DNA from: a virus
Lineage: Duplodnaviria; Heunggongvirae; Uroviricota; Caudoviricetes
DNA length: 20,148 nt
Reading direction: 5' to 3' (one strand)
IMG/VR virus record: IMGVR_UViG_2541047958_000001
Coordinates: 1-20,148 of that record
Part shown: in pieces, positions 1-20,148 of the stretch
How positions within the stretch are numbered: the first letter of the stretch is position 1
Layout: each line of letters begins with the position of its first letter
Position numbers and translations under genes: made by a program
Notes under the pieces: model-generated
Databases searched by the model: none
Seen by the model: the letters and a program-made list of their open reading frames with translations, nothing else
Told to the model about the DNA's origin: nothing

Positions 1-201
1 TTATTTATTCGATTTCTCTATATGGTGATTTAAAATCTCTGCTTTTGCCTCTTCATAAGTTAGCTTACCTCTTATAACTTCATCCTTTATTTTCTGGTAA
101 AATTCTGACCCGCGAGGATCTTTACCTGATAAATATAAGCTAGCCTCTGCTTTCCTAAATGCCTCAATCCTTTTTCTCTTCGTGGTCTCATCCATTTTCA
201 T
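1..201 (-). CDS. Small helical protein resembling VbhA/YhfG-type Fic antitoxins, with a variant motif
   Basis: Complete 66-aa ORF (ATG at 199-201, TAA at 1-3, AGGT SD-like element upstream). Basic N-terminus followed by A-S-L-Y-L-S-G, which aligns with the S-x-x-x-E-G inhibitory motif of VbhA/YhfG but has Ser where the Glu would be. AT-rich. Family assignment is from memory only. Confidence 0.4.
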   Translation of the reverse strand: MKMDETTKRKRIEAFRKAEASLYLSGKDPRGSEFYQKIKDEVIRGKLTYEEAKAEILNHHIEKSNK

Positions 202-214
202 TACTACCTATGTT

Positions 215-1162
215 TTAGTCAGTTGATGAGGTAAATGATATCATTTCGATAACTTCTATTCCTTTAGAATTAATTCTGTAGCATTCGTTTTTCGATTTCC
301 TGATGTATGAAAATGAATCTTTTTTTGTATTGCAATCTGTCTTAGAAAAAGCATCAAGTAAAAGAAAAGACTTCTGATGCTCTGGTATTATCTTTATTGA
401 AAAAACACTAATGAATAATAATGCAATTGCTGTCGATAATAGATCTGCAACTCTTAAGTAGCTATTCGAACATATGAGTATTTTTTTAAACCATATCATT
501 AAAATTAGTTTTGCTCTATTAATATCTTGTGCCATTGTTTTTGCAATGTATAATAGATTCTTTTTATTGGATGAAGTTGATTCTTTATTTGTTTTTTGCA
601 TTGCTTTGAACATGGTTACGATACCGAAAGCTAACCCGAAAACTAACAACATAATAACTTTGAAATCAACCTCTTGGTTTTTTTCAATCGTCTCTCTTAG
701 CATTGCAGAAAAAGTGATGGTCAAAATTACCGCGTAAAAGCATTGATAAGCAGTAATTCTTCCAAAGTATAAGTATATGAAAATGCTAAGGCCATAAATG
801 GATAGAGATAGAGGAATGGCCATTGCGAAAGCATAACCATAAGATGAGTATATTAAGTATTCCGGTTGAATATCGTAATCAAAATTAATTTTATGTTTTG
901 CATACCACATACAAATTGAAAAAATCAATACTGTTCCAATCCATTTAATGATGCTGTGCTCAATCATTTTATTGACGATTGTTTTTTTGTTGTTATAGGC
1001 ACAAAAAATGAATGCTACGGAGAGGAATAATCCACAAACTAAGAAGGTTTTATCTTGAAGTAATAATGGGAACTTCATGATTACAATGCAAGCAATCAGC
1101 AAATATATAATGGATACAATATTGAAATCAAAATTTGCAATGTGTTTTCTAATGTAACGCAT
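215..1162 (-). CDS. Polytopic inner-membrane protein of unknown function (about 8-9 predicted TM helices)
   Basis: 315-aa ORF, strongly AT-rich, repeated 15-25 residue hydrophobic stretches separated by short K/N-rich loops. AAGGA SD 9 nt upstream of the ATG at 1162, overlapping the integrase stop, so it appears co-transcribed downstream of the integrase. No catalytic motif recognised. Confidence 0.6.
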   Translation of the reverse strand: MRYIRKHIANFDFNIVSIIYLLIACIVIMKFPLLLQDKTFLVCGLFLSVAFIFCAYNNKKTIVNKMIEHSIIKWIGTVLIFSICMWYAKHKINFDYDIQPEYLIYSSYGYAFAMAIPLSLSIYGLSIFIYLYFGRITAYQCFYAVILTITFSAMLRETIEKNQEVDFKVIMLLVFGLAFGIVTMFKAMQKTNKESTSSNKKNLLYIAKTMAQDINRAKLILMIWFKKILICSNSYLRVADLLSTAIALLFISVFSIKIIPEHQKSFLLLDAFSKTDCNTKKDSFSYIRKSKNECYRINSKGIEVIEMISFTSSTD

Positions 1163-1172
1163 AAGATATCCT

Positions 1173-2246
1173 TTATTTCAACTTTAACGCTAAATCCTCA
1201 GCTTTTGGATGATAATACCGCATTAGCATTCTCGGGTCTTTATGCCCCGTGATTTTTGTCAGCTCGTGCATGGGGAAAATCTCAGCCAAGCGAGAGGTCG
1301 CTTCATGCCGGAGATCGTGAAATCTTAAATCTTTGAGGAAGGTGTCATCACATTGAGGTTTAGCTTGTTCATATCTTTCTCTGGCGCGCTTTACAGCTCG
1401 ATCAAAAGCGCGGGTGATCGCATCGGCACGCATTCCAAAAACCTTGTCATCAGCTTGTTTAGAACGCTCCTTTAGATTGGATAGTACCATAACAGCCTTT
1501 GTGGATAAGGGGACATCGCGAGCATTACCATTCTTAGTATCTGGCAGATGTGCAACTCGCCTATCAAGATCGATAAAGCGCCATCGAAGTTCTGCAATTT
1601 CGCTACGGCGCATGGCTGTCTCTAACGCCAGAAGAATGATTGCTGGCAATACTAATGAATGTGTTGCGGCAATGATATGTTCGATCTCGTTGGCTAATTC
1701 CTTTCCTGACGTAACACCGGTTTGCTCAGAAACTAAAGGCAGCGCTTCCAGGCGTCTGGTCCTTGAGTTCTTGGGTTGGGGTTTGCGAATGGCCTCTACG
1801 GGGTTCAGCAGGCTCTCCATGCCCCATTCTTTCCGCGAAACATTGAATACATGAGAAAGTAAGGCCAAACGCCTTAAAACAGTTGCAGGAGCATAAATTT
1901 TCAACCATTCATCTCTTAGCTTGGCGACATCGGCACTCCTGATGCTGGCCATATAGTTTTTTGCCAGCTGAGTGCCTTTTAGTATCCGCACCAATGATCG
2001 GTCTTGCACTGCTCCTTTTTTGTCGGGAACAATCTCTTTTTCATAGCGCGTTAGGGCTTCATACAATGTCGTAGATTCCGCTTCGCTGCGGCTAAGCCAA
2101 ACTCCTCTCGCCATTTCTGACTCGATCATTTTGGCCCAAGCATCTGCTTCTACTTTGGTGTTAAAGGTTTTGGTTTGAGAGGGAAAACCACGTTTACGGA
2201 TTTGAGCTTCCCATTGGTAGTTACCACGTTTGCGTATAGTCGCCAT
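1173..2246 (-). CDS. int: Tyrosine recombinase / integrase (unrelated in sequence to the int at 2398-3561)
   Basis: C-terminal catalytic signature: R in ETAMRRSE, HDLRHE box, tyrosine in LMRYYH. ORF track starts at a TTG (2276); an in-frame ATG at 2246 (MATIRKRG...) is the more likely start. Confidence 0.88.
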   Translation of the reverse strand: MATIRKRGNYQWEAQIRKRGFPSQTKTFNTKVEADAWAKMIESEMARGVWLSRSEAESTTLYEALTRYEKEIVPDKKGAVQDRSLVRILKGTQLAKNYMASIRSADVAKLRDEWLKIYAPATVLRRLALLSHVFNVSRKEWGMESLLNPVEAIRKPQPKNSRTRRLEALPLVSEQTGVTSGKELANEIEHIIAATHSLVLPAIILLALETAMRRSEIAELRWRFIDLDRRVAHLPDTKNGNARDVPLSTKAVMVLSNLKERSKQADDKVFGMRADAITRAFDRAVKRARERYEQAKPQCDDTFLKDLRFHDLRHEATSRLAEIFPMHELTKITGHKDPRMLMRYYHPKAEDLALKLK

Positions 2247-2334
2247 TTCTGTCTGATTCCTAACGAACTGTGGCAATATTGTGGCAAAAAATCTATTTAA
2301 ATTCGATAGGTATTGATTTTACAGGACCAATTTA

Positions 2335-2383
2335 CGCATTCGTAATGCGAAGGTCGTAGGTTCGACTCCTATTATCGGCACCA
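2335..2383 (+). other. 3' 49 nt of tRNA-Thr(CGU) (thrW-like): anticodon loop TTCGTAA, T-arm GGTTCGACTCC, acceptor 3' strand plus CCA; att core copy
   Basis: Sequence cgcattcgtaatgcgaaggtcgtaggttcgactcctattatcggcacca carries the T-loop, an anticodon loop with CGT, and terminal CCA; the 5' half of the tRNA is absent (upstream sequence does not fold as D-arm or acceptor). It lies 15 bp beyond the stop of the P22-type int. Confidence 0.8.
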
Positions 2384-2397
2384 TTTAAATCAATAAG

Positions 2398-3561
2398 TTA
2401 CACATCATTAGTACCTTCCTTATTTTTTGACTGGGACAAATTTGGGACCGATGGGTTCAGGATCGAGTCTATTTGCCGTGCGTGTTCGGTAAGGTGATTA
2501 GGTGCAAGGTGAGCATATCGACGAACCATTTCGATAGACTCCCAGCCTCCCATTTCCTGTAACACTGACAACGGGACTCCGGCTTGAACCAGCCAACTTG
2601 CCCAGGTGTGTCTCAAGTCGTGAAATCTGAAATCATCAATACCAGCCCGTCTCAGCGCCGCTTTCCAGGCTGTGTTTGCGTCATACCGCATCTTCCTTAC
2701 TGTTGGCGCTTTCGTTCCGTCTGGTTTGGTACAGCTTTCCTTGTACACAAATACCCAACGGTGATGATTCCCGATTTGTTTTTTCAATACGCGACATGCA
2801 GTATCATTCAGCGCAACGCCGATTGCGCGGTTTGATTTACTCTCTTCCGGGTTTATCCATGCCACCCGGCGCTGCATATCTATTTGTTGCCATTCAAGGT
2901 TGATGATGTTCGAGCGTCTTAAGCCTGTTGCCAGTGCAAATTCAACAACAGACTTTAATGGCTCCGGACATTCATCAATCAGCCTTTGTGCTTCATGGGG
3001 CTCCAGCCAGCGGATCCGTTTATTCTTTGGTTGAGGCACTTTAATAATTGGTGCCTTATCCAGCATTTTCCATTCACGCTCTGCGGCTCTTAGTAGGGCT
3101 TTTATAAATGAAAGATGCGTAGCCTTCGTTGCAACAGACGCTGGTTTTGGCGTGTATTCTGGAACAGGTTTCCCTTTTTTTCTGCATGCTTCTTCCCTGA
3201 GTTTCCAGTTTTCCTCATTACGCCGGTTCGTCATTTTCTGCATTGCTGAATAAATTTTTGATTCAGTAATGTCTCTTAGTTGCATTCCTGCGAAATGTTG
3301 AAGCCAGAACCCGATCCGGCTTTTGTCATCGTCCAGTGATTTTTTATGTGCTTTCTCTTCAAGCCACCTGACACACGCTTCCTCGAACGTTATATCAGGT
3401 ATTTCACCAAGTTTGCTGACCCGCCATGCTTCAGCCTTTAGCTTGTCATGGAGTTCTGTCGCCTGCCTTTTGTCCTTTGTTCCAAGAGACTGTTTAAATC
3501 TTTTACCGTTCGGCAATGTGAAACTGGCGTACCATATTTCACCTCTGCGGAAGAGTGACAT
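2398..3561 (-). CDS. int: Phage integrase, P22/lambdoid type (tyrosine recombinase)
   Basis: 387-aa ORF with HDLRH box and RYAH catalytic tyrosine region; closely resembles the P22-family integrase as I recall it; 3' end abuts the tRNA-Thr att core, as expected for attL-int. Confidence 0.92.
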
Positions 3562-3788
3562 TTTCTTTCCTCTGTTATGCCATCACCCGCGCTCACCTTG
3601 ATAGTATGCAGCGGAGACTGAAGCGCCGCAATGCAGGCTTGTCGCGTTGTGAGGTAAGGAGATTTTGGTTTAGTGGGGTCTTTGCGTGTTGCCTGTAGGC
3701 GGCCTGTTCGTATCCAGTTGGTAGCGGTAGGTCTGGATATCTTGAGAAACTGACAGGCCTCATCGAGTGTGAGGCTGTATGATTCCAT
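3438..3788 (-). CDS. xis: Excisionase (Xis), P22-like, 116 aa
   Basis: ATG at 3788 preceded by a GAGG SD 5 nt upstream (ORF-track GTG start at 3818 is probably an upstream extension); lies directly upstream of int and overlaps its 5' end in another frame; basic helix-turn-helix-like N-terminus. Confidence 0.7.
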
Positions 3789-4038
3789 GGTTACCTCTGC
3801 TTTTTGAACGCATGTCACGTAACTTCTTAATGTGTTCTGCCGTTTCGATCTCTTCTGCTATCCGATCTGCATCAGCTTTATTCACAGGTTCAAAGTCATG
3901 ATTAAAGCGGAACATGCTGGCGATACATGTTCTGCCTTTTCGGATGTAGTGAACTTTGTTGTGGGTAGAACGCAGGATTTTGCAGGGAGTGCCGTGGTGG
4001 TCGACGTACCAGGTGTTAGGAAAAATGATTCTGAACAT
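3760..4038 (-). CDS. Hypothetical prophage early protein (92 aa, Cys/His-rich)
   Basis: ATG at 4038 with GAGGTG SD 7-8 nt upstream; compact ORF overlapping the xis start by 29 nt; no family recognised with confidence. Confidence 0.45.
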   Translation of the reverse strand: MFRIIFPNTWYVDHHGTPCKILRSTHNKVHYIRKGRTCIASMFRFNHDFEPVNKADADRIAEEIETAEHIKKLRDMRSKSRGNHGIIQPHTR

Positions 4039-4085
4039 TTTTACACCTCAGTTGGACGATGTTGAAATTTGCTGCTTTGAGGCCA

Positions 4086-4304
4086 TCACAGTCCCCATTG
4101 TTTGTTCTTAAGTTCGATCTCCTCCTGGCAACTTGCACAAGTCCGACAACCCTGAACGGCCAGGCGTCTTCGTTCATCTATCGGATCGCCACACTCACAA
4201 CAATGAGTGGCAGATATAGCCTGGTGGTTCAGGCGGCGCATTTTTATTGCTGTGTTGCGCTGTAATTCTTCAATTTCTGATGCTGAATCAATGATGTCTG
4301 CCAT
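4086..4304 (-). CDS. TraR/DksA-family C4 zinc-finger protein (72 aa)
   Basis: Two CxxC pairs (CCEC ... CRTC) in the C-terminal half after an acidic helical N-terminus, which is typical of phage TraR-like RNA polymerase-binding proteins. Confidence 0.6.
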   Translation of the reverse strand: MADIIDSASEIEELQRNTAIKMRRLNHQAISATHCCECGDPIDERRRLAVQGCRTCASCQEEIELKNKQWGL

Positions 4305-4613
4305 CTTTCATTAATCCCTGAATTGTTGGTTAATACGCTTGAGGGTGAATGCGAATAATAAAAAAGGAGCCTGTAGCTCCATGATGATTTTGTTTTTCAT
4401 GTTCACCGTTCCTTAAAGACGCCGTTTAACATGCCGATCGCCAGGCTTAAATGAGTCGGTGTGAATCCCATCAGCGTTACCGTTTCGCGGTGCTTCTTCA
4501 GTACGCTACGGCAAATGTCATCGACGTTTTTATCCGGAAACTGCTGTCTGGCTTTTTTGATTTCATAATTAGCCTGACGGGCAATACTGCGAAGGGCGGG
4601 TAATGACTCCAAC

Positions 4614-5117
4614 TTATTGATAGTGTTTTATGTTCAGATAATGCCCGATGACTTTGTCATGCAGCTCCACCGATTTTGAGAACGACAGCGACTTCCGTCC
4701 CAGCCGTGCCAGGTGCTGCCTCAGATTCAGGTTATGCCGCTCAATTCGCTGCGTATATCGCTTGCTGATTACGTGCAGCTTTCCCTTCAGGCGGGATTCA
4801 TACAGCGGCCAGCCATCCGTCATCCATATCACCACGTCAAAGGGTGACAGCAGGCTCATAAGACGCCCCAGCGTCGCCATAGTGCGTTCACCGAATACGT
4901 GCGCAACAACCGTCTTCCGGAGCCTGTCATACGCGTAAAACAGCCAGCGCTGGCGCGATTTAGCCCCGACGTATCCCCACTGTTCGTCCATTTCCGCGCA
5001 GACGATGACGTCACTGCCCGGCTGTATGCGCGAGGTTACCGACTGCGGCCTGAGTTTTTTAAATGGCGGAAAATCGTGTTGAGGCCAACGCCCATAATGC
5101 GGGCGGTTGCCCGGCAT
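4614..5117 (-). CDS. insB: IS1 InsB (expressed as InsAB' by -1 frameshift)
   Basis: 167-aa ORF matching the IS1 transposase catalytic part; overlaps insA in the -1 frame. Confidence 0.93.
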
Positions 5118-5311
5118 CCAACGCCATTCATGGCCATATCAATGATTTTCTGGTGCGTACCGGGTTGAGAAGCGGTGTAAGTGAACTGCAGTTGCCATGT
5201 TTTACGGCAGTGAGAGCAGAGATAGCGCTGATGTCCGGCAGTGCTTTTGCCGTTACGCACCACCCCGTCAGTAGCTGAACAGGAGGGACAGCTGATAGAA
5301 ACAGAAGCCAC
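5036..5311 (-). CDS. insA: IS1 InsA
   Basis: 91-aa [46 protein letters not shown]... (zinc finger plus HTH), canonical IS1 InsA. Confidence 0.93.
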
Positions 5312-5471
5312 TGGAGCACCTCAAAAACACCATCATACACTAAATCAGTAAGTTGGCAGCATCACCCGAAGGGCGTTTTCTTGCTGAGGTGTCATTGAAC
5401 AAGTCCCATATCGGCAAGCATAAGCACACAGAATATGAAGCCCGCTGCCAGAAAAATGCATTCAGTGGTTG

Positions 5472-5663
5472 TCATACCTGGTCTCTCTCATCTGCTTCTG
5501 CTTTCGCCACCATCATTTCCAGCTTTTGTGAAAGGGATGTGGCTAACGTATGAAATTCTTCGTCTGTTTCTACTGGTATTGGCACAAACCTGACTCCAAT
5601 TTGAGCGAGGCTATGTGCCATCTCGATACTCGTTCTTAACTCAACGGGAGATGCTTTGTACAT
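5472..5663 (-). CDS. Lambda orf63-like small early protein (63 aa)
   Basis: 192-nt ORF overlapping the upstream orf60a-like gene by 28 nt, the same length and overlap geometry as lambda orf63 as I recall it. Confidence 0.5.
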   Translation of the reverse strand: MYKASPVELRTSIEMAHSLAQIGVRFVPIPVETDEEFHTLATSLSQKLEMMVAKAEADERDQV

Positions 5664-5818
5664 ACAGCCCCTCGTTTATTATTTATCTCCTCAGCCAGCC
5701 GCTGGGCTTTCAGTGGATTTTGGATAACAGAAAGGCCGGGAAATACCCAGCCTCGCTTTGTAACGGAGTAGACGAAAGTGATCGCGCCTACCCGGATATT
5801 ATCGTGAGGATGCGTCAT
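5636..5818 (-). CDS. Lambda orf60a-like small early protein (60 aa)
   Basis: ATG at 5818 overlaps the exo stop (ATGA overlap), same arrangement as lambda orf60a; the ORF track gives a start two codons upstream at 5824. Confidence 0.5.
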
Positions 5819-6495
5819 CGCCATTGCTCCCCAAATACAAAACCAATTTCAGCCAGTGCCTCGTCCATTTTTTCGATGAACTCCGGCACCATCTCGTCAA
5901 AACTCGCCATGTACTTTTCATCCCGCTCAACCACGACATAATGCAGTCCTTCACGCTTCATACGCGGGTCATAGTTGGCAAAGTACCAGGCATCTTTTCG
6001 CGTCACCCACATGCTGTACTGCACCTGGGCCATGTAAGCCGACTTTATGGCCTCGAAACCACCGAGCCGGAACTTCATGAAATCCCGGGAGGTAAACGGG
6101 CATTTCAGCTCAAGGCCATTGCCGTCACTGCATAAACCATCGGGAGAGCAGGCGGTGCGCATACTTTCGTCGCGATAGATGATCGGGGATTCAGTAACAT
6201 TCACGCCGGAAGTGAATTCAAACAGGGTTCTGGCGTCGTTCTCGTACTGTTTTCCCCAGGCCAGCGCCTTAGCATTAACTTCCGGAGCCACACCGGTGCA
6301 AACCTCAGCCAGCAGGGTGTGGAAGTAGGACATTTTCATGTCAGGCCACTTCTTTCCTGAGCGGGGCTTTGCTATCACGTTGTGAACTTCTGAAGCGGTG
6401 ATGACGCCGAGCCGTAATTTGTGCCATGCATCATCCCCCTGTTCGACAGCTCTCACGTCGATCCCGGTACGCTGCAGGATAATGTCCGGTGTCAT
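5815..6495 (-). CDS. exo: Lambda-type exonuclease (Red alpha, Exo), 226 aa
   Basis: Protein [40 protein letters not shown]... is essentially lambda Exo along its full length (from memory). Confidence 0.95.
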
Positions 6496-7277
6496 GCTGC
6501 CACCTTCTGCTCAGTGGCTTTCTGTTTCAGGAATCCAAGAGCTTTCACTGCTTCGGCCTGTGTCAGTTCTGACGATGCGCGAATGTCGCGGCGAAATATC
6601 TGGGAACAGAGCGGCAATAAGTCGTCATCCCATGTTTTATCCAGGGCGATCAGCAGAGTGTTAATCTCCTGCATGGTTTCATCGTTAACCGGAGTGATGT
6701 CGCGTTCCGGCTGACGTTCTGCAGTGTATGCAGTATTTTCGACAATGCGCTCGGCTTCATCCTTGTCATAGATACCAGCAAATCCGAAGGCCAGACGGGC
6801 GCATTGAATCATGGCTTTATGCCGTAACATCCGTTTGGGATGCGACTGCCACGGCCCCGTGATTTCTCTGCCTTCGCGGGTTTTGAATGGTTCGCGTCGG
6901 CATTCGTCCATCCACTCGGTAACGCAGATCGGATGATTACGGTCTTTGCGGTAAATCCGGCATGTACAGGATTCATTGTCCTGCTCAAAGTCCATGCCAT
7001 CAAACTGCTGGTTTTCATTGATGATGCGGGACCAGCCATCAACGCCCACCACCGGAACGATGCCATTCTGCTTATCAGGGAAGGCGTAAATTTCTTTCGT
7101 CCACGGATTAAGGCCGTACTGGTTGGCGACGATCAACAATGCGATGAACTGCGCATCGCTGGCATCACCTTTAAATGCCGTCTGGCGAAGAGTGGTGATC
7201 AGTTCCTGTGGGTCGACAGAATCCATGCCGACACGTTCAGCCAGCTTCCCAGCCAGCGTTGCGAGTGCTGTACTCAT
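6492..7277 (-). CDS. bet: Lambda-type single-strand annealing protein (Red beta, Bet), 261 aa
   Basis: Protein [66 protein letters not shown]... matches lambda Bet (from memory); 4-nt overlap with exo. Confidence 0.95.
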
Positions 7278-7282
7278 CCGTT

Positions 7283-7579
7283 TTATACCTCTGAATCAAT
7301 ATCAACCTGGTGGTGAGCAATGGTTTCAACCATGTACCGGATGTGTTCTGCCATGCGCTCCTGAAACTCAACATCGTCATCGAACGCACGGGTAATGGCT
7401 TTTTTGCTGGCCCCGTGGCGTTGCAAATGATCGATGCATAGCGATTCAAACAGGTGCTGGGGCAGGCCTTTTTCCATGTCGTCTGCCAGTTCTGCCTCTT
7501 TCTCTTCACGGGCGATCTGCTGGTAGTGACGCGCCCAGCTCTGAGCCTCAAGACGATTCTGAATGTAATAAGCGTTCAT
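7283..7579 (-). CDS. gam: Gam (RecBCD inhibitor), short 98-aa GamS-type form
   Basis: ATG at 7579 with AGGAG SD gives [60 protein letters not shown]..., lambda GamS-like. The upstream in-frame extension (GTG at 7618) does not resemble the lambda GamL N-terminus. Confidence 0.85.
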
Positions 7580-7654
7580 GGCTGAACTCCTGAAAATGGC
7601 TGTGAAAATATCGCCCACGAAATGCCAGGCTGATTAGGAAAACAGGAAAGGGGA

Positions 7655-7945
7655 TTAGTGATTCAGGCCGTTACCGCGTCCGTCGAGAAAAACTTCCACG
7701 AGCAAATCACGGGTATAAGTGCGCTCGATGCCGCGATGCAGATAAAGCCGTCCGCGTAAATTAGCTGATGCAGTCCAGGTACCATCTTTGTGTTTGACCA
7801 GCATTCCTGGCATGACCGCACCTCGATTAACGGTCTGCGTTCCATAATGTTGATGAACCATAAAAACTCCTGCCCGTAAGCTGGGCTGCTGAACATATAG
7901 AGACTTCTGCGCGTATTCAGGCGGTGGATGGCCGCCGGTTGTCAT
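7655..7945 (-). CDS. Hypothetical 96-aa protein, first ORF downstream of the pL-like promoter (N position)
   Basis: ATG at 7945; weak GAGG 10-11 nt upstream; no arginine-rich N-terminal motif; an alternative overlapping 77-aa ORF (7663-7896) exists in another frame; coding status uncertain. Confidence 0.35.
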
Positions 7946-8099
7946 AACTAAGCCGCCTCGTTGAAGCGACTAAGGTATGAAATGTTGAGTTAATTTCAGC
8001 TGGTCACACCGACGTTCACGCGTCCGTTTCACCCCTCGCACTCCCCGAAGCCTGCTGAAATTCAAACTGCGGATCTAAGCGGTCATCGCAACGGTGAAT

Positions 8100-8230
8100 C
8101 AGGTAGTTGCCGTATCGTTGTGTTGTTGCGATGAACTTATTTAAAACTATAGTTGTTTTATCGTCAACAACAAAAGTTGTTTTATTGGTTGTTTTAGATA
8201 TAACTGGTTGTATTTAGGATGGATTTATTT
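8100..8230 (-). promoter_or_regulatory. oL/pL-like region: array of GTTGTT/AACAAC operator half-sites with a leftward TTGACG-17 nt-TTAAAT promoter-like element
   Basis: At least six GTTGTT/AACAAC half-sites, including the inverted pair AACAACAAAAGTTGTT; the same half-site appears in the oR palindrome at 10000-10024. Minus-strand -35 TTGACG (8167-8162), 17-nt spacer, -10 TTAAAT (8144-8139). Coordinates in this stretch could not be cross-checked against an ORF. Confidence 0.4.
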
Positions 8231-8307
8231 TGTGACTTGCATCGCACAGCGATAACTGAAGCGAGGTCGTGGTGGTTTTTTGAACGGTTTGTGTGATGAG
8301 GGGAGGC

Positions 8308-8335
8308 AAAAGAAAACCCGGCACGACGGCCGGGG
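8308..8335 (-). terminator. Intrinsic terminator immediately 3' of the 287-aa gene
   Basis: Minus-strand hairpin CCCGGC-CGUCGU-GCCGGG followed by UUUUCUUUU, beginning 4 nt after the stop codon at 8339-8341. Confidence 0.55.
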
Positions 8336-8338
8336 AAA

Positions 8339-9202
8339 TCATTTCGCATCTACAATAAATAACCTGTTTATCTGGCCTTTTTTAACAGTAGCCTTTGCGG
8401 TTATAGTGAATACTGCAGATGGATCACCTTTGGTTGATATATATGCACTAAGAGCTCTAATATACGGGTTATTCTTCTTTCCTGCAGCTGGATCGCTAAT
8501 TTCAGCAGTGATTCTCTTTTTTGAGTCATCACCATCTAAAATTATTTTAGCTGTCATATTTTGTGCATCAAATTCTGTAAGAAAAGCACGATACTCACGA
8601 AGACCGAGAACTTCATCATCATCAAGCCTATCAATTTCAGCTTTATCTCTCTCGTTAACTTTTAGAAGGCAGCCGTCAACATTTGTTGCAACACTTATCT
8701 GATCGCAAGTATTACCAATAGGTGATACTGCCTGCCTTACAGAGGGGCGAAGCTCTACAGCCATTCGGTCAATCAAAGAGATCAACTTATCAATGGTTCC
8801 AGCATCCTTGTTTCCTAGTGCCTCTATGGCCTTTTCAAGTGACTGCTGCAAAGCTTTCATTTCATCTTTCTTGTTAGAATTTCTCGCAAAAATATATTGT
8901 AGTATTGCGCCAAGTATAGTTGCGGCGATCCCCGAGAACAACTGGTTCTGAGTGGCGAAGTTAAGAACTGCTTCAAGAGTAAAGCAGTTAGCTTTTGCTT
9001 CGCGTGCGTAAACCTTAACTTCCTGATAATTAATGTATTTACTATATTTTTGTGTAACAGAGAAAGAAGCTGCTGTTGAGAGAACTTTAGAAAAACCCTT
9101 TAGGGATTCTCCTAGGCAGTTCAAATCTATTTCATGATTTAAAGCATCTTTTCCGTCATACCTAAGAGAGATTTTTATATCCTGTAAAGCGTCACAATCC
9201 AT
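8339..9202 (-). CDS. Orphan 287-aa protein of unknown function in the immunity-region moron slot (rexAB-equivalent position)
   Basis: Co-oriented with and 66 bp downstream of cI, followed by its own terminator and then oL/pL; clearly more AT-rich than the flanking phage genes; one central hydrophobic helix ([18 protein letters not shown]) followed by a charged coiled-coil-like segment; no family recognised. Confidence 0.7.
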
Positions 9203-9268
9203 AAATCGCTCTCGTCTAATTCTAATTAAATTTACTATCCCCTAAACGACTCATCAGCACAGTACTGA

Positions 9269-9958
9269 TTATCCATGTTTCCTGTACGTCTGGGGCATGC
9301 TCCCAATAACCTTACCGAAGATGAACACCCGGTTCATCTCGTCTTTCTCGATCGGGTCCCACGGTGAGTAGCTCTTGTTATCAGAGATAACCAGCAGCTT
9401 ATCCTTCATCATTTGCAGGCGCTTTACATGGGCTGTGTCGTCGTACAGAAACGCATAGATACCATCACCGTCGAAAGATTTAACCGTGATATCAACGAAC
9501 AGCAGATCACCTGGTTCGATCGTTCCTGACATGCTGTCACCACGCACGTTAATGATGCGGATATTTTCCGCCTTCCTACCATCGAACATGTGACGAGCAT
9601 CGTCAAACGAGTACTCAACCGAGCGTAGAACTTCTACAAACTCACGGTTGATGACTCCCGGCCCAGCACTGACTTCTATATCAAGAACGTCAATCTTGAA
9701 GTATTTGGAATGGCTGACAGTTGATTGTATTGGTTGCACTGTACTGTCTGACATATTTCCAACGCCAGAAGATAACCATTCTGCGCGCACACCCAAAGCG
9801 TTCGCGATCTCCACGATTTTAGTTGTTTGATTAGCTTTCCCTGTTTCGATTTTCTGAATAGCAGCCTGGCTAACCCCGACCAAATCCCCAAGCGCCTTTT
9901 GTGTAAGGCCTCGCGCTAATCTGGCTTCTTTAAGTCTTTCTGAGAGTGTTGTTTTCAT
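9269..9958 (-). CDS. cI: CI-type prophage repressor (HTH_XRE N-domain plus S24 LexA-like autopeptidase C-domain), 229 aa
   Basis: HTH LTQKALGDLVGVSQAAIQKIETGK; Ala-Gly cleavage site in EVSAGPG; Ser nucleophile in RGDSMSGT and Lys in HVKRL. Start taken at ATG 9958 (MKTTLSERL...), because the ORF-track extension to 10024 runs through the operator/promoter region. Confidence 0.85.
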   Translation of the reverse strand: MKTTLSERLKEARLARGLTQKALGDLVGVSQAAIQKIETGKANQTTKIVEIANALGVRAEWLSSGVGNMSDSTVQPIQSTVSHSKYFKIDVLDIEVSAGPGVINREFVEVLRSVEYSFDDARHMFDGRKAENIRIINVRGDSMSGTIEPGDLLFVDITVKSFDGDGIYAFLYDDTAHVKRLQMMKDKLLVISDNKSYSPWDPIEKDEMNRVFIFGKVIGSMPQTYRKHG

Positions 9959-10062
9959 AGTCCAAATGTACAACCAAGGTTTTATTCCATCAAACGAAAA
10001 TGGTTGTTGACTAAAAACAACCATAGTTTTAATCTTGATTCAAATTAACCACGGAGGTTGTT
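9959..10062 (+). promoter_or_regulatory. oR/pR/pRM-like divergent control region
   Basis: Perfect 9-bp-arm inverted repeat ATGGTTGTT-N7-AACAACCAT (10000-10024) overlapping a rightward promoter: -35 TTGACT (10007-10012), 17-nt spacer, -10 TAATCT (10030-10035), then GGAGG SD (10053-10057) 5 nt before the cro ATG. Confidence 0.6.
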
Positions 10063-10293
10063 ATGAACCCAGCTATCAAAACAGCGATCAATATCGTTGG
10101 TTCACAAAAGAAACTGGGCGCTGCTTGCGAAGTTTCACAGCAGGCCGTCTATAAGTGGCTTCACAACAAAGCAAAGGTATCCCCTGAACATGTCGGCAGC
10201 ATTGTTACGGCTACTGGTGGAGTAGTGAAGGCATACCAGATTCGCCCGGATCTTCCGAAGTTGTTTCCACACACCGAAAAGAACGCAGCTTAA
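10063..10293 (+). CDS. cro: Cro-like HTH regulator (76 aa)
   Basis: Divergent from cI across the operator region; helix-turn-helix (KKLGAACEVSQQAVYKWLHN); strong SD. Confidence 0.8.
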   Translation: MNPAIKTAINIVGSQKKLGAACEVSQQAVYKWLHNKAKVSPEHVGSIVTATGGVVKAYQIRPDLPKLFPHTEKNAA

Positions 10294-10305
10294 ATTTCCA
10301 TTTCA

Positions 10306-10318
10306 CGCTCTTTAACAA
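10306..10318 (+). promoter_or_regulatory. boxA-like element (CGCTCTTTAACAA) in the cro to cII-position intergenic region; nutR-like
   Basis: Matches the boxA consensus CGCTCTT(T)A and the rrn-type extension AACAA; I could not find a convincing boxB hairpin downstream. Confidence 0.3.
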
Positions 10319-10362
10319 TAAGCAATCAACTTAACAGTCAATTCAAACTAAAGGAGTCAATT

Positions 10363-10902
10363 ATGCAACCACTTACATACCAACAGACTAGCGGATTTAG
10401 CCCGACTGCGGTGATAAATCGTTCTCAAACAAAACAGGTGCCAGGCCACGAAAAAATCCGTGATGCCGTCCGCGCCTGGTCGGCTGTAGATAATCAGGAT
10501 GTCGTTGCCACACTCATTGTGAATGAGTATCGGGAGCAGGGCGGCGGCACCATCGATTTCCCTGATGATGTCAGCCGTGCACGCCAGAAGCTGTTCCGCT
10601 TCCTCGATAACAAATTCGATTCTGAAAAATACCGAAATAACGTGCGTGAACTGACCCCGGCAATTCTGGCGGTACTACCGCTGGAATATCGCGGTTACCT
10701 GGTTGAGCAGGATAGCTTCATGGCTAGGTTGGCTGAAATGGAAAAGGAACTCAGTGAGGCAAAACAGGCTGTCATTCTCAACGCACCACGCCACCAGAAA
10801 CTGAAGGAAATTAGTGAAGGTATTGTGTCGATGTTTCGTGTGGACCCAGATCTGGCTGGTCCATTGATGGCGATGGTTACTACCATGCTGGGGGCGATAT
10901 GA
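10363..10902 (+). CDS. CII-position regulator, 179 aa (CII/CP76/YdaT-like)
   Basis: Position immediately after cro, AAAGGAG SD; family assignment by position and size only, from memory. Confidence 0.5.
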   Translation: MQPLTYQQTSGFSPTAVINRSQTKQVPGHEKIRDAVRAWSAVDNQDVVATLIVNEYREQGGGTIDFPDDVSRARQKLFRFLDNKFDSEKYRNNVRELTPAILAVLPLEYRGYLVEQDSFMARLAEMEKELSEAKQAVILNAPRHQKLKEISEGIVSMFRVDPDLAGPLMAMVTTMLGAI

Positions 10903-10988
10903 CAGGTTCAGAAATGGCGAAAGCCGGTCTGCTGGAACAGAACCGACTTTCAGGTGCAAATCGTAACACACTCATTGCGGGAGGAATT

Positions 10989-11918
10989 ATGGCAAACACT
11001 GCTGAGATATTCAATTTTCCAGTGCCGGATGCGGCACAAAAGGAGCCGCGCGTGGCAGATCTCGATGATGGTTATACGCGCATTGCAAATGAGTTGCTGG
11101 AAGCTGTGATGCTGGCCGGATTAACACAGCACCAGCTTCTGGTCTTCCTAGCTGTCATGCGCAAAACATATGGCTTTAATAAAAAACTGGATTGGGTGAG
11201 CAACGAGCAACTGTCCGAATTGACCGGGATATTGCCGCACAAGTGTTCTGCTGCAAAAAGTGTTCTGGTAAAGCGTGGGATTCTTATTCAGAGCGGGCGG
11301 AATACCGGCATTAATAATGTGGTCAGTGAATGGTCAACATTACCCGAATCAGGTAAGAAAAATAAAGTTTACCTGAAAGAGGTAAATTTACCTGAATCAG
11401 GTAAAAAAAGTTTACCCAAATCAGGTAAAGACGTTTACCCGAATCAGGTAAACACAAAAGACAAACTAACAAAAGACAATATAAAACCTTTTTCGTCCGA
11501 GAATTCTGGCGAATCCTCTGACCAGCCAGAAAACGACCTTCCTGTGGAGAAACCAGATGCTGCAATTCAGAGCGGCAGCAGGTGGGGGACAGCAGAAGAC
11601 CTGACCGCCGCAGAGTGGATGTTTGACATGGTGAAGACCATCGCGCCATCAGCCAGAAAACCGAATTTTGCAGGGTGGGCTAACGATATCCGCCTGATGC
11701 GTGAACGTGACGGACGTAACCACCGCGACATGTGCGTGCTGTTCCGCTGGGCATGCCAGGACAACTTCTGGTCCGGTAACGTGCTAAGTCCGGCCAAACT
11801 CCGCGACAAGTGGACCCAACTCGAAATCAACCGTAACAAGCAACAGGCAGGCGTGACAGCTAGCAAACCAAAACTCGACCTGACAAACACAGACTGGATT
11901 TACGGGGTGGATCTATGA
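10989..11918 (+). CDS. O: Replication initiator O (lambda O family)
   Basis: N-terminal domain DLDDGYTRIANELLEAVMLAGLTQHQLLVFLAVMRKTYGFNKKLDWVSNEQLSELTG resembles the lambda O DNA-binding domain; ori iterons embedded in the linker-coding part; ATG at 10989 with GAGGA SD (the ORF track extends upstream to 10899). Confidence 0.85.
   Translation: MANTAEIFNFPVPDAAQKEPRVADLDDGYTRIANELLEAVMLAGLTQHQLLVFLAVMRKTYGFNKKLDWVSNEQLSELTGILPHKCSAAKSVLVKRGILIQSGRNTGINNVVSEWSTLPESGKKNKVYLKEVNLPESGKKSLPKSGKDVYPNQVNTKDKLTKDNIKPFSSENSGESSDQPENDLPVEKPDAAIQSGSRWGTAEDLTAAEWMFDMVKTIAPSARKPNFAGWANDIRLMRERDGRNHRDMCVLFRWACQDNFWSGNVLSPAKLRDKWTQLEINRNKQQAGVTASKPKLDLTNTDWIYGVDL
11340..11495 (+). repeat. Replication origin: five iterons TTTACCYRAAWSAGGTAA (starting 11340, 11368, 11387, 11411, 11434) followed by an A-rich tract
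   Basis: Five direct repeats, each an internal inverted repeat TTACC...GGTAA, spaced 19-28 bp, inside the O coding sequence, followed by ACACAAAAGACAAACTAACAAAAGACAATATAAAACC. Confidence 0.75.
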
Positions 11919-12133
11919 AAAACATCGCCGCACAGATGATTAACTTTGACCGTGAGCAGATGCGTCGGATCGCCAACAACATGCCGGAACAGTACGACGA
12001 AAAGCCGCAGGTACAGCAGGTAGCGCAGATCATCAATGGTGTGTTCAGCCAGTTACTGGCAACTTTCCCGGCGAGCCTGGCTACCAAAGGTGGGAAGCTG
12101 GAACTGACCATCACTGAACTGGGAGATGAATGA
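11915..12133 (+). pseudogene. Remnant of replication protein P (first ~57 codons lambda P-like, then 15 unrelated codons and stop)
   Basis: MKNIAAQMINFDREQMRRIANNMPEQYDEKPQVQQVAQIINGVFSQLLATFPASLA matches the lambda P N-terminus (from memory); lambda P is about 233 aa and the ORF here ends at 72 aa. Confidence 0.6.
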
Positions 12134-12270
12134 TGTTTGAGTCTTATATGGCAGAACGTCTTCGCCGCCGCTGGGTGCGCCTGCGCTTATATCGTTTCCC
12201 CGGTTCTGTTTTGACCGATTACCGAATACTGAAGAGTTACGCCAAAACCCTGACAGGAGCAGGAGTATGA
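12130..12270 (+). CDS. Small basic protein, 46 aa (YlcG-like)
   Basis: ATG overlapping the P-remnant stop; MMFESYMAERLRRRWVRLRLYRFPGSVLTDYRILKSYAKTLTGAGV; lies just upstream of Q, as ylcG does in DLP12-type prophages (from memory). Confidence 0.4.
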   Translation: MMFESYMAERLRRRWVRLRLYRFPGSVLTDYRILKSYAKTLTGAGV

Positions 12271-12355
12271 AGTCAGAGATAACAATCAACTAATACTGTT
12301 TTGTTGATTTTTGCTTGTAATTGGCGTTTTGGTCTGATTTTTGTGGAGTAAGTTG

Positions 12356-12739
12356 ATGCGTGATATTCAGATGGTTCTTGAGCGTTGGGGAGCGTGGGCG
12401 GCTAATAATCATGAAGATGTGACCTGGTCGTCCATTGCCGCCGGTTTTAAGGGATTAATTCCTTCAAAAGTAAAATCTCGCCCGCAATGTTGTGACGATG
12501 ACGCGATGATCATTTGCGGGTGCATGGCCCGTCTGAAAAAGAACAACAGCGATTTGCACGATTTATTAGTAGATTATTATATAGTCGGTATGACATTCAT
12601 GTCACTGGCAGGTAAGCATTGCTGCTCTGATGGTTATATCGGGAAAAGGTTACAAAAGGCTGAGGGCATAATTGAAGGGATGTTAATGGCATTAGATATC
12701 CGGTTAGAGATGGATATCGTTGTTAATAACTCTAATTAA
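12356..12739 (+). CDS. Q: Late-gene antiterminator Q (phage 21/82 / QuuD type), 127 aa
   Basis: ATG at 12356 with GGAG SD; Cys-rich zinc-binding region ([12 protein letters not shown] ... HCC); last gene before the late/lysis region. Confidence 0.8.
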
Positions 12740-12772
12740 TACGCCAATTATTTACTAAAAGTTATTAAAAAT

Positions 12773-12912
12773 GGGGCGTTGAAGCGCCCCCAAAAATAAA
12801 GGGTAATATATAACAGAAGGTTTGTATAGTTAGAAGCAAGGTTGTGCTTCTAAAGGAAGTGGCTTGAGGGAGCCACTTATATGTTGGGGAGGCAAAGCCT
12901 CCCACAACATAT
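12773..12912. terminator. Cluster of four stem-loops between convergent Q and porin genes (12773-12790 with U-run on the minus strand; 12832-12851; 12857-12878; 12879-12912)
   Basis: GGGGCG-N6-CGCCCC followed on the minus strand by AUUUUU; long near-perfect palindrome ATATGTTGGGGAGGC-AAA-GCCTCCCACAACATAT followed on the plus strand by CUUUU; probably porin 3' UTR and terminators. Confidence 0.45.
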
Positions 12913-12927
12913 CTTTTAGTAATCAAA

Positions 12928-14010
12928 TTAGAACTGGTAAACCATACCTACAGCAACGATATCATCGGTAGCAACGCCAGATGCTTTCGTGAAATCGCTC
13001 TTATCAATCAGGTTGATTTTGTAGTCAACAAAAGTGGACATATTTTTGTTGAAGTAATAGGTTGCACCTACATCAACATATTCAACCAGGTCCTGATCAC
13101 CCCAAACACCCAAGTCTTTTCCTTTAGAATGCAGGTAAGCAACGGATGGACGCAGGCCGAAGTCGAACTGATATTGTGCAACAGCTTCGAAGTTTTGTGC
13201 TTTGTTGGCAATATGGTTATTACCAAAAACAGTCATGTTCTGGGTTTCAGAATAGGTGGTGGCCAGATAGATGTTGTTCGCATCATATTTCAGACCAGCT
13301 GCCCATACTTCAGCATTTTGACCAGAAGCATTCAGACCGTTGTTACCGTAGATAACCTGATTATTAGTGCGATCAGATTTAGCATAGGTTGCACCCACGC
13401 CGAATCCTTCATACTCATAAGTAGTTGAGAAACCGAAACCATCGCCATTAGCTTCAGTTACTTCATTTCGGTCATTTTTGCCCTGATACTGAGCTGCAAA
13501 GTTCAGGCCATCAACCAGACCAAAGAAGTCGTTGTTACGATAAGTTGCAACACCTGTGGTGCGACCAGTCATGAATACATCTGTTTGGGTCCAAGTATCG
13601 CCACCGAATTCTGGCAGAACGTCGGTCCATGCACCAATATCGTATGCTACACCGTAGTTACGGCCATAATCGATGGAGCCGTAGTCACCGAATTTCAGGC
13701 CAGCGAAGGCAAGACGGGTTTTATCTTTGGAGGAACCTTGAGATTCAGCGCGGTTGCCTTTGAATTCATATTCCCACTGACCGAAACCAGTCAGTTGATC
13801 GTTGATTTGGGTTTCACCTTTGAAGCCAAGACGGGCATAAGTAGTATCACCATCATCTGCATCATTAGAGGAGAAGTAGTGCTTAGCATTAACTTTCCCG
13901 TACAGATCCAGCTTGTTACTGTCTTTATTATAAATTTCAGCTGCCTGAGCAGACATCGCCATCAGTACTGATGCAGCTACAGCAGAAATTGCCACTGTTA
14001 ATTTTTTCAT
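12928..14010 (-). CDS. nmpC: General diffusion porin of the OmpC/OmpF/PhoE family (NmpC/Lc-type, phage-borne moron), 360 aa with signal peptide
   Basis: Signal peptide [29 protein letters not shown]; beta-barrel sequence with C-terminal ...VAVGMVYQF; sits between Q and the holin on the opposite strand. Confidence 0.9.
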
Positions 14011-14438
14011 CGTGAGCCCTTTTTTTTGAACTATTATTAAAAAATGATGTCACTGCGCGATAAATATTCATCTAATCAATGTGATTATTTCAAGATGTAA
14101 GTTTTGGTTTCTCGTTTGATTTGTGAAGTAGATCTCTATTTTTATCTGAACTTTTTTCTATCGAATCCTATTCATAGCTCTTGGCTGAATAAAAATAAAT
14201 CTATTAGCCAATTTATATTAACGGTTGTTATTTATAAGTGCTCTATAATTTGAAGGTTCAATTTAAATTGGCTAAAAATAACACTGGAAATTATTTGTTG
14301 GTTATTTGTTGAGATTTGCTTATGTATTTGTAGTGGTGTTTTCAATACTCGGTAGCATTCTCGCAAATATCATTTAGTGGTTTACGTACGTAAAAAATTG
14401 GTTATGCTGTTAAGAGTGGTTACTTCGTCACACAGCTT

Positions 14439-14471
14439 AAACCCGCCGTCGAGCGGGTTTTTCCATTTTTT
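14439..14471 (+). terminator. tR'-like intrinsic terminator upstream of the lysis genes
   Basis: AAACCCGC-CGTCGA-GCGGGTTT hairpin followed by TTCCATTTTTT, about 110 nt upstream of the holin start; position consistent with the Q-modified terminator of the late operon. Confidence 0.5.
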
Positions 14472-14583
14472 GAGTCTCGATATTAGCTGATAACCCAATA
14501 CCTGAGTTATTCACTGACTCCGAGTCTGTTACGTTTCGTAGTATTCCCTCAATTTACACCCGCTTTGTCTGCGAGGTGGGGTT

Positions 14584-14799
14584 ATGAAATCCATGGATAA
14601 GTTAACAACGGGTGTCGCCTATGGCACCTCAGCAGGTAGTGCCGGGTACTGGTTTTTACAGTTGCTCGATAAAGTCACGCCCTCACAGTGGGCGGCAATA
14701 GGTGTGCTGGGTAGTCTGGTATTTGGCCTGCTGACGTACCTGACAAACCTTTATTTCAAGATTAAAGAAGATAAGCGCAAGGCTGCGAGAGGTGAATAA
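14584..14799 (+). CDS. S: Class II holin/antiholin, phage 21 S-type pinholin (71/68 aa dual start)
   Basis: [26 protein letters not shown]...: two start Mets separated by a Lys (dual-start motif), two TM helices, charged C-terminus; GAGGTGG SD. Confidence 0.9.
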
Positions 14800-15296
14800 T
14801 GCCTCCATCATTACGAAAAGCAGTTGCTGCTGCTATTGGTGGCGGAGCAATTGCTATAGCATCAGTGTTAATCACTGGCCCAAGTGGTAACGATGGTCTG
14901 GAAGGTGTCAGCTACATACCATACAAAGATATTGTTGGTGTATGGACTGTATGCCACGGACACACCGGAAAAGACATCATGCTCGGTAAAACGTATACCG
15001 AAGCAGAATGCAAAGCCCTCCTGAATAAAGACCTTGCCACGGTCGCCAGACAAATTAACCCGTACATCAAAGTCGATATACCGGAAACAACGCGCGGCGC
15101 TCTTTACTCGTTCGTCTACAACGTGGGTGCTGGCAATTTCAGAACATCGACGCTTCTTCGCAAAATAAACCAGGGCGATATCAAAGGCGCATGTGATCAG
15201 CTACGTCGCTGGACATACGCTGGAGGTAAGCAATGGAAAGGACTGATGACTCGTCGTGAGATTGAGCGTGAAGTCTGTTTGTGGGGGCAGCAATGA
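14799..15296 (+). CDS. R: SAR endolysin (T4 lysozyme-like muramidase with N-terminal signal-anchor-release domain), phage 21 R-type
   Basis: Weakly hydrophobic Gly/Ala-rich N-terminus [20 protein letters not shown] followed by a GH24 lysozyme fold; start overlaps the holin stop. Confidence 0.9.
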
Positions 15297-15712
15297 GCAG
15301 AGTAACCGCGATTATCTCCGCTCTGATTATCTGCATCATCGTCTGCCTGTTATGGGCTGTTAATCATTACCGTGATAACGCCATCGCCTACAAAGAGCAG
15401 CGCGACAAAGCCGCATCCACTATCGCTGATATGCAGAAGCGTCAACGTGATGTAGCAGAACTCGACGCCAGATACACAAAGGAGCTTGCTGATGCTAACG
15501 CGACTATCGAAAGTCTTCGTGCTGATGTTTCTGCTGGGCGTAAGTGGCTGCGCGTCAAAGCTGTCTGTCCAGACATGCATAAAATCACCGCCGCCTCCGG
15601 CGTGGATGATGGCACCAGCCCCAGACTTACTGACACCGCTCAACGGGATTATTTCACCCTTAGAAAGCGGATTGAAACCAGTGATAAAATGATCCGAGGC
15701 TTGCAGCAATAA
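15293..15712 (+). CDS. Rz: Rz i-spanin
   Basis: ATG at 15293 overlapping the endolysin stop (ATGA); N-terminal TM helix [20 protein letters not shown] then a coiled-coil periplasmic domain. Confidence 0.8.
15486..15692 (+). CDS. Rz1: Rz1 o-spanin (lipoprotein) embedded in Rz in the +1 frame
   Basis: Lipobox LGVSGC after a hydrophobic signal peptide, proline-rich mature part ([18 protein letters not shown]), entirely inside Rz. Confidence 0.7.
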
Positions 15713-16116
15713 ATTCGCACGCAGTGTGTAAGATGAGCAATCTTTGCTAATTAGCCATGAAATAGATAAATATCAGGCCAACGATGATTAGTGCCAGGCA
15801 TCCTAATTGGTCAGAATGGCTGGCATTTGATCGTCTTGCTCTTCTTGCAGTTGATTGGACAGCCCTCTGTCCTCGACTTCCTCTTGGCATTCCTCTCATT
15901 TATTCTCTCTCAACATTGATATTGAACTGACAGATGATAATGATTTCATGAAAGTGGTATCTCGTTGATTTGATTACGCTACATAGTCGCCGGATTTTCG
16001 CATTTATCGGCATCGGGCGGTGCAAAATTGGCATAATCGAAACGTAGAGTTTTTGGCTGACAACAGCATTAGCGGTCACCCGGAGAGTGTTGTGAACATG
16101 TTAATTACATGACGCT

Positions 16117-16437
16117 TTAGATGCATCGACATTTGATGATGCTTGTCAGACCTGTCATTTTCTTTGCTTCATTTTCAACATTGAGGAAGTTGGTTGAGCA
16201 TATTTTTTGATAATCTCCAGTTGTGAATCCTGTTTTATCGATCTTGCGTTTCAAGGGATTAATCGTTTTGCAAGATGCTCTATGGATTCTGGTAAAGCGT
16301 TCGTCAGATTTATTACCTTTACCTCTGGTTCGCTTCAATGCATTGACAACATATCCGTCTGGATTATCGCCAAGCCAATTACGATAGTCTGATTCACTCT
16401 CAGTCTGAAGGTCACTTCTGAATACCTTTATGGACAT
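16117..16437 (-). CDS. Hypothetical 106-aa protein (possibly YbcV-like lysogenic-conversion slot gene)
   Basis: ATG at 16437 with AGGAG SD 7 nt upstream (ORF-track start at 16455 lacks an SD); transcribed opposite to the lysis cassette. Confidence 0.5.
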   Translation of the reverse strand: MSIKVFRSDLQTESESDYRNWLGDNPDGYVVNALKRTRGKGNKSDERFTRIHRASCKTINPLKRKIDKTGFTTGDYQKICSTNFLNVENEAKKMTGLTSIIKCRCI

Positions 16438-16863
16438 GAAGATACTCCTGTGCATTTATGGTACGAAGAAATAGCAAAAGTATTTTTACCGTAAATTGCG
16501 AATCTACAAAAGCAAAACAATGCGTAATATCAGAGTGAATATTCTGCCTTTAATGTGGGTCCTTCTGATGACCTGAGCTCTCACGGGGCGGGAGCGTCGC
16601 GGAAAAAGGCTAGTTTTTGCATTTTTATCGGCCACCATTATCTTTGCATCTTATTGATTATTAATGGTTATTTGTTTTTTGTATGTCGAATTGAGCGGTT
16701 TTTGTTCGACATCGAACGCGTTTTCTTAAAGTTGTTCGCACGATGCATGTTTAAAGCTCTCCGGAGGAAATATGGATCATGAGTTGAAAAACTTGGTGCT
16801 GAATATTAATCAACTGGCGGCTTTAGCCGCTGGCGCATCGAGCAGTGCAGCGAACTGAGCGCG

Positions 16864-17127: not shown

Positions 17128-17132
17128 ATCCC

Positions 17133-19021: not shown

Positions 19022-20148
<1,127 letters not shown>

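Follow-up and report, generated by a model that had tools for sequence, protein, structure and literature searches.

A 3' fragment of thrW between two integrase genes as the probable shared attachment site of a genomic island and an SfV/P22-type prophage

The window, by which we mean the whole 20,148-nt stretch of DNA that was analysed, carries two integrase genes on the same strand, and the 151 bases at 2247-2397 are exactly the intergenic gap from the integrase gene at 1173-2246 (-) to the one at 2398-3561 (-). A 49-nt piece of a tRNA gene lies inside this gap. The features at the locus are as follows.

1-201, minus strand: gene for a VbhA-family antitoxin, 66 aa (RefSeq annotation, from the 98.7-100% identical stretch of strains E2 and E3)
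215-1162, minus strand: gene for an AT-rich protein, 315 aa (phrog_26661 match; conserved beside the island integrase)
1173-2246, minus strand: island integrase, a tyrosine recombinase, 357 aa (PF00589, E = 8.8e-27; phrog_1 integrase)
2247-2334, plus strand: island-side arm, the left arm of the proposed attR, in the upstream region of the integrase gene (conserved with the integrase in three genera)
2269-2287, plus strand: two copies of TGTGGCAA, 11 bp apart (the 20-kb window has one further exact copy)
2335-2383, plus strand: 3' part of thrW, 49 nt, from the anticodon stem (5' strand) to the CCA of tRNA-Thr(CGU)
2338-2383, plus strand: phage core, 46 nt (common to the attP of SfI, SfII, SfV, SfX and P22)
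2384-2400, plus strand: post-CCA stretch, 17 nt (stays similar in all thrW-type att sites aligned)
2398-3561, minus strand: prophage integrase, SfV/SfI/P22 type, 387 aa (PF00589, E = 3.3e-48)
2432-2448, plus strand: pair of TGGGAC motifs, 11 bp apart (within the 3' end of the integrase gene; read from the sequence)
3438-3818, minus strand: excisionase gene, xis (phrog_2907, E = 6.6e-52; RefSeq equivalent 3438-3788)

Alignment places the fragment at 2335-2383 (CGCATTCGTAATGCGAAGGTCGTAGGTTCGACTCCTATTATCGGCACCA) on positions 28-76 of K-12 thrW with no mismatch. It is present as a single copy in the 20,148-nt window, even when up to three mismatches are permitted, and the 49-mer was recovered in 0 of 100 shuffled sequences. 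ARAGORN called no tRNA in the entire window, and the fragment scored 22.6 bits against the Rfam tRNA model, under the gathering score of 29; the tRNA thus lacks its 5' half. An earlier, sequence-only reading of this DNA had proposed such a tRNA-Thr(CGU) 3' fragment without its 5' half, and the exact thrW match, the single copy and the two negative tRNA searches bear this out. That reading was also accurate on the flanking genes. The stop codon of the right integrase gene starts 15 bp past the CCA, as it had proposed, leaving a gap of 14 nt, and the start of the left integrase gene, estimated at about 90 bp leftward and reading away, is an ATG at 2246 (-) that is separated from the fragment by 88 nt, with transcription pointing away from it; RefSeq gives the gene the same start in identical relatives.

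The description of the two integrases as unrelated, however, did not hold. Both belong to PF00589 (94.4 bits for the island integrase and 164.1 bits for the prophage integrase, against a cut-off of 27.1), they align with 28% identity over about 337 residues (E = 3e-18), and their HxxR and C-terminal Y motifs correspond in this alignment, so they are better described as distant relatives. No promoter or terminator came up when 2150-2500 was scanned for consensus motifs. Similarity among thrW-type sites continues for about 17 nt past the CCA, with the pattern T[TA]AAATCAA..GTTA, in the native chromosomal flank, in CP4-6, in strain E3 and in the phage arm. The stretch 2384-2400 is identical in E3, which has the island and the fragment and no SfV-type integrase beside them.

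On the right side, the 46-nt core ATTCGTAATGCGAAGGTCGTAGGTTCGACTCCTATTATCGGCACCA is present exactly at 2338-2383, and the cores printed for SfI, SfII, SfV, SfX and P22 are this identical 46 nt (PMC3636060). Similarity to phages in blast searches begins only at 2338, from where the window shows 98-99% nucleotide identity to the attP-int-xis segments of phi458, SfI, SfIV, SfV and SfII; the int-attP segment is about 80% identical to those of P22, ES18, ST64T and phage L. The SfI record (JX509734) places the core 14 nt from the integrase stop codon, the spacing found in the window; it also has xis at the corresponding place, and its integrase converges on the core as it does here. The xis product matched the TIGR01764 excisionase-family domain with 27.5 bits, slightly below the cut-off of 28.8 bits. 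The proposal that the right integrase is of the P22 type and carries a thrW 3' core in its attP is supported by the near-identity to the Sf phages and the exact core. The TGGGAC pair, which is identical in the SfI attP and in the thrW-integrase junction of strain MB56, provides candidate arm-type sites for the phage integrase. Seen from the right, the fragment is an ordinary SfV/P22-type attL minus the tRNA 5' half.

The likeness to SfI, SfII, SfIV, SfV, SfX and P22 extends to the identical core, the 14-nt gap, the converging integrase and the xis gene upstream of it. Two differences stand against it. The core here lies outside an intact thrW, since another element sits upstream, and the remaining prophage is a deleted DLP12/lambda-like genome rather than an Sf-type myovirus with gtr genes.

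The left side is AT-rich, as had been stated, with 31% GC over window positions 1-1000. The 357-aa integrase is identical to WP_000201381.1 in strains E2, E3 and LR-06. The 315-aa protein beside it matches no Pfam or NCBIfam family, and its gene is also found, as two pieces, in a minimal Pantoea element (L008, described below). The 66-aa VbhA-family protein shows a weak SHOCT-like match in Pfam and nothing more; its gene is a member of the integrase-proximal module of the island, which comprises, in conserved form, a HigA antitoxin, traJ, trbJ, trbL, the VbhA antitoxin, the AT-rich membrane protein and the integrase. The thrW-proximal cargo, in contrast to this conserved module, varies, and includes Hachiman, an AAA ATPase with an HNH nuclease, an ABC-three-component system, a dynamin-family protein and the fec operon. 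Gene content was read from L001 1-20000, L004 9888-22246, L007 3234-21077 and L037 143-25576, and on this basis the element resembles an island that carries defence genes and other cargo and retains vestiges of conjugation genes. No excision factor was found for it. In relatives, tet(B) was seen near the island.

Of 5,426 complete E. coli genomes, 95 carry the left integrase together with its 88-nt arm, each as a single copy and always on the chromosome. The fragment adjoins the left integrase in every E. coli genome that was inspected or listed, mostly without a phage integrase. The other arm of the island, taken as the first 100 nt after the thrW CCA in E2, was found in 106 E. coli genomes, again as a single copy each, and the two arms lie roughly 10-30 kb apart in the strains caught by both searches, with a distance of roughly 10-24 kb in WAT, 2017.06.04CC, EA7 and NZ_CM188245.

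When one genome per species was scanned, Enterobacter and Pantoea yielded integrases 91-99% identical to that of the island. These relatives have the same arm and a tRNA-Thr(CGU) 3' fragment that starts at the same base, and the arm at 2247-2334 and its integrase are conserved together across E. coli and these two genera; in Pantoea, the T-arm and acceptor strand of the fragment are of the Pantoea type. The persistence of the fragment in relatives from all three genera supports the proposed link between the left integrase and this stretch of the tRNA gene. In 'Candidatus Pantoea haifensis' (L008) the element is reduced to a minimal 2.7 kb, with an intact thrW at one end and the fragment at the other, in the order intact thrW, arm, AT-rich membrane-protein gene, integrase, fragment. 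The left integrase, if active, would recombine within the 3' part of thrW. The Pantoea-type T-arm of the fragment (L008 and L011) may fit a crossover near the anticodon loop; in L008, however, the sole Pantoea genome in which the intact thrW was also seen, both copies are of the Pantoea type.

A second TGTGGCAA pair in the same orientation lies 81-99 nt past the CCA of the intact thrW in E2 and in Pantoea. The reconstructed island attP contains two such pairs, one on each side of the core region, with 11-bp spacing and in a single orientation. The integrase-side pair is retained upstream of 67-70% identical integrases in Yersinia and Thiobacillus, and more distant relatives have analogous TTGGACA/TGGGACA pairs. 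The TGTGGCAA pairs are accordingly spaced and conserved in a manner that makes them candidate arm-type binding sites of the island integrase. Paired TGTGGCAA repeats were also noted at 38259-38277 of L002 and in L008 (reverse strand).

Target specificity has shifted within the lineage of the island integrase. Relatives with paired repeats lie at other targets in Yersinia (L012, L013, L017, L019 and L020), Thiobacillus (L014) and a member of the Moraxellaceae (L018). The target in Thiobacillus resembles, by eye, a tRNA-Ala(CGC) fragment, that in L018 is an intact tRNA-Ala(CGC) with the arrangement reversed, and that in the Yersinia relatives is a non-tRNA sequence.

The junction between the two integrase genes was found with 98.5-99.6% identity in two complete E. 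coli genomes, E2 and LR-06; no complete E. coli genome matches the window over 80% of its length. Both genomes show the same array: proA, intact thrW, an island of 26-32 kb, the fragment, the prophage, a third copy of the core, and yagP'/paoD. In E2, thrW lies at 253101-253176, the fragment at 285373-285421 and a 46-nt copy at 318727-318772. Island DNA begins directly after the CCA of the intact thrW, and the 32-kb island carries Hachiman genes, traJ-trbJ-trbL, IS elements, the fec operon, VbhA and the integrase. The E2 prophage is truncated by IS1, and its 46-nt copy adjoins a yagP remnant and paoD. The corresponding positions in LR-06 are 3654091-3654166, 3628005-3628053 and 3584981-3585026; here the island is 26 kb long, and about 43 kb holds an apparently complete prophage. 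The third copy in both genomes has an SfI-type arm at its left and the K-12 chromosomal flank at its right, which identifies it as the attR of the prophage.

The sequence-only reading had expected an intact thrW beyond the left island and further copies of the core in the genome. The former is present in both complete genomes that have the junction, and the latter appear as the third copy beyond the prophage. With three-copy arrays in E2 and LR-06, and with each element also found alone, its proposal of tandem integration at thrW is well supported. Direct comparison shows how the array is built in relatives, that the two elements are independent and which phage core is present. By extension from these relatives, the window's own array would likewise include an intact thrW and a third core copy.

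Each element stands alone at thrW in other strains. In MB56, proA is followed by an intact thrW and, immediately behind it, by a prophage 98.4% identical to window 2335-15408; the right flank of the thrW-integrase junction is identical to that of the window, and there is no island. Strain E3 is 100% identical to window 1-2400 and has a different element after the fragment. The tandem junction occurs in 15 of the 95 island carriers (16%), while an SfV/P22-type integrase, counted as matches at at least 80% coverage, is present in 1,044 of 5,426 E. coli genomes (19%). A test of association between island and prophage therefore showed no enrichment over background, and since 16% is close to the 19% expected under independence, the two elements look independent. 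Likewise, E3 and the 80 of 95 carriers without the tandem junction indicate that the fragment accompanies the left integrase whether or not the phage is there. The proposal that these are separate elements is strengthened by the solitary insertions in MB56 and E3 as well as by the unremarkable rate of co-occurrence.

We consider it highly probable that the fragment is at once the attR (right junction) of the island and the attL (left junction) of the prophage. With similarly high confidence, we regard it as the middle att site of a tandem thrW array, with the island at its left and an SfV/SfI/P22-type lambdoid prophage at its right. In the mechanism we propose, both integrases would recombine in the 3' part of thrW, each attP holding a copy of that part, and integration would rebuild an intact thrW upstream while leaving an extra 3' fragment downstream. 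Two elements at the site would then produce a middle fragment with the island arm leftward and the integrase-side arm of the phage rightward, and the expected full structure would be proA, intact thrW, island, fragment, prophage, 46-nt copy and chromosome. Excision of the island should join thrW to the phage arm, which is the MB56 arrangement, and excision of the prophage should leave the island with a normal attR; either element could thus excise alone with thrW and the other element unharmed. Within this scheme, it is the activity of the left integrase, the arm-type sites and the exact crossover position that we infer.

An alternative is that island and prophage are parts of a single composite element and move together, with the fragment as an internal relic. 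The same integrase pair surrounds the fragment in 15 E. coli genomes, and, by eye, the end of a P22-type integrase gene seems to lie right of the fragment in Enterobacter vonholyi, in Ca. Pantoea haifensis and in an Enterobacterales MAG, which favours such an element. However, the tandem junction is missing from 80 of the 95 island carriers, the MB56 prophage sits directly at thrW without the island, the 16% co-occurrence is close to the 19% background of the phage integrase, and the cargo on both sides varies among the genomes that have the pair. This explanation is very unlikely, and the recurrence of the pair follows from two elements competing for one popular site.

There is a similarly slim chance that the fragment belongs to the prophage alone, with the left integrase a stray from an element that uses another att site or none. 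The link between the left integrase and the core comes from sequence comparison, and 58-70% identical integrases adjoin other sequences, including tRNA-Ala and, in Yersinia, non-tRNA sequence, which leaves some room for this explanation. Against it, the fragment stays beside the left integrase in E3 and in most carriers, where no SfV-type integrase is present. The fragment also starts 3 nt (CGC) ahead of the phage core, at the same base as the K-12 CP4-6 repeat. Moreover, both ends of the island are conserved with the same repeat pair on each, and thrW and the fragment bound the minimal Pantoea element.

Loss of the thrW 5' half by deletion or IS-mediated rearrangement, with no second site-specific integration, is less likely still. 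The neighbourhood is IS-rich (IS1, IS3 and IS30 in relatives, IS5 in the window), but the left boundary of the fragment falls on the same base in E. coli, Enterobacter, Pantoea and K-12 CP4-6, an intact thrW lies upstream in E2 and LR-06, and no IS end touches the fragment. Finally, it is scarcely conceivable that the fragment is a genuine, unusual tRNA gene, as the 112-nt tRNA-Ser listed here by RefSeq would imply, because ARAGORN, the Rfam score and a fold test of the 112 nt (no cloverleaf, and no better than shuffles, z = -1.09) all speak against a functional tRNA, which we reject, and because the anticodon loop belongs to tRNA-Thr(CGU) and the supposed 5' part is the island arm.

The tRNA-Ser annotation itself recurs at the equivalent of window 2272-2383 in all relatives for which the annotation was read or listed (22272-22383 in L001; likewise in L004, L007 and L036). 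These 112 nt consist of island arm plus thrW 3' fragment, and the annotation is probably a recurrent artefact.

The locus can be compared with several elements already described at the same site. thrW is among the most used tRNA-gene hotspots of E. coli (PMC7545054), and tandem SfI-SfX lysogens at thrW have been made experimentally in S. flexneri serotype 1d, where the incoming element sat upstream, at the attL of the resident, which contains the intact thrW (PMC3306764). The array described here likewise has two elements stacked at thrW with a copy of the att core between them. Whereas SfI and SfX are both phages with the same type of integrase, the upstream element here is a non-phage island whose integrase is 28% identical to that of the prophage. 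By analogy with SfI-SfX, the island may be the later arrival; the structure itself is silent on the order.

The CP4-6 element of K-12 has the same 49-nt thrW repeat with the same starting base. Like the island, it has its integrase far from thrW and transcribed away from the fragment, with an integrase-fragment gap of 109 nt for intF compared with 88 nt in the window. Its cargo and arms are unrelated to those of the island. IntF (466 aa) matches the left integrase with 27% identity over 173 of 357 residues (E = 1e-5), and we therefore rejected the left integrase as an IntF orthologue: the layout is the same and the lineage is different. PAI III of strain 536 and the Vat/Tsh islands of APEC occupy the same hotspot downstream of proA and, likened by description rather than by sequence, also hold variable cargo within tRNA-derived repeats, as here. 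Relatives of the island carry anti-phage defence systems, Hachiman among them, together with the fec operon and a remnant of traJ-trbJ-trbL.

The hotspot role of tRNA genes, repeats formed by 3' fragments and tandem arrays at thrW are all already established, and in this respect the finding is correct and ordinary. To our knowledge, the family of the left island has not been described; it is only a modestly new item, yet of a familiar kind. A functional reading of the pairing is also conceivable, in which the island benefits from an adjacent P22/SfV-type prophage by being carried out via a hybrid att site or by packaging started from the prophage. We hold this to be very unlikely; if it were true, the recurrence of the pair in E. 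coli, Enterobacter and Pantoea would have a functional basis. It is more likely than this that the island family simply represents uncharacterised, thrW-specific, defence-carrying elements with TGTGGCAA arm sites, distributed across Enterobacterales.

The practical value of the analysis lies in marking exactly where one mobile element ends and the other begins, in a stretch that might otherwise pass for a single 'prophage region'. For annotation, it helps to expose the tRNA-Ser that RefSeq places at this position as a probable artefact. It also supplies boundaries and candidate arm sites for a thrW island family that is present in about 2% of complete E. coli genomes and whose cargo serves anti-phage defence and iron uptake.

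The prophage of the window is deleted and probably defective. Behind the replication gene O come first a 72-aa ORF and next the antiterminator Q (10899-12739), with no P or nin genes between them, and the holin-lysozyme-Rz cassette is followed within about 1.4 kb by the lambda-type tail genes K and I (15281-18421); no terminase, portal, capsid or head genes were found in the window. The far junction of the prophage falls outside the window, which ends within the prophage, and it may have been lost. The gene for an IS5-family transposase (DDE_Tnp_1, DUF772) at 19168-20148 (-) starts exactly at the last base of the window, both ends of which seem to coincide with gene boundaries.

Between the CI-like repressor and the kil/gam region lies the gene for a 287-aa DUF7946/DUF7947 protein (8339-9202, -). 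This protein is very widespread, its exact sequence being found in thousands of records and in several lambdoid prophage contexts, and many of the matches are DLP12-like prophages, apparently at argU as judged by neighbouring genes; it may be an accessory or defence gene of the prophage. As in DLP12-type prophages, an OmpC/NmpC-like porin gene (12928-14010, -) separates Q from the lysis cassette.
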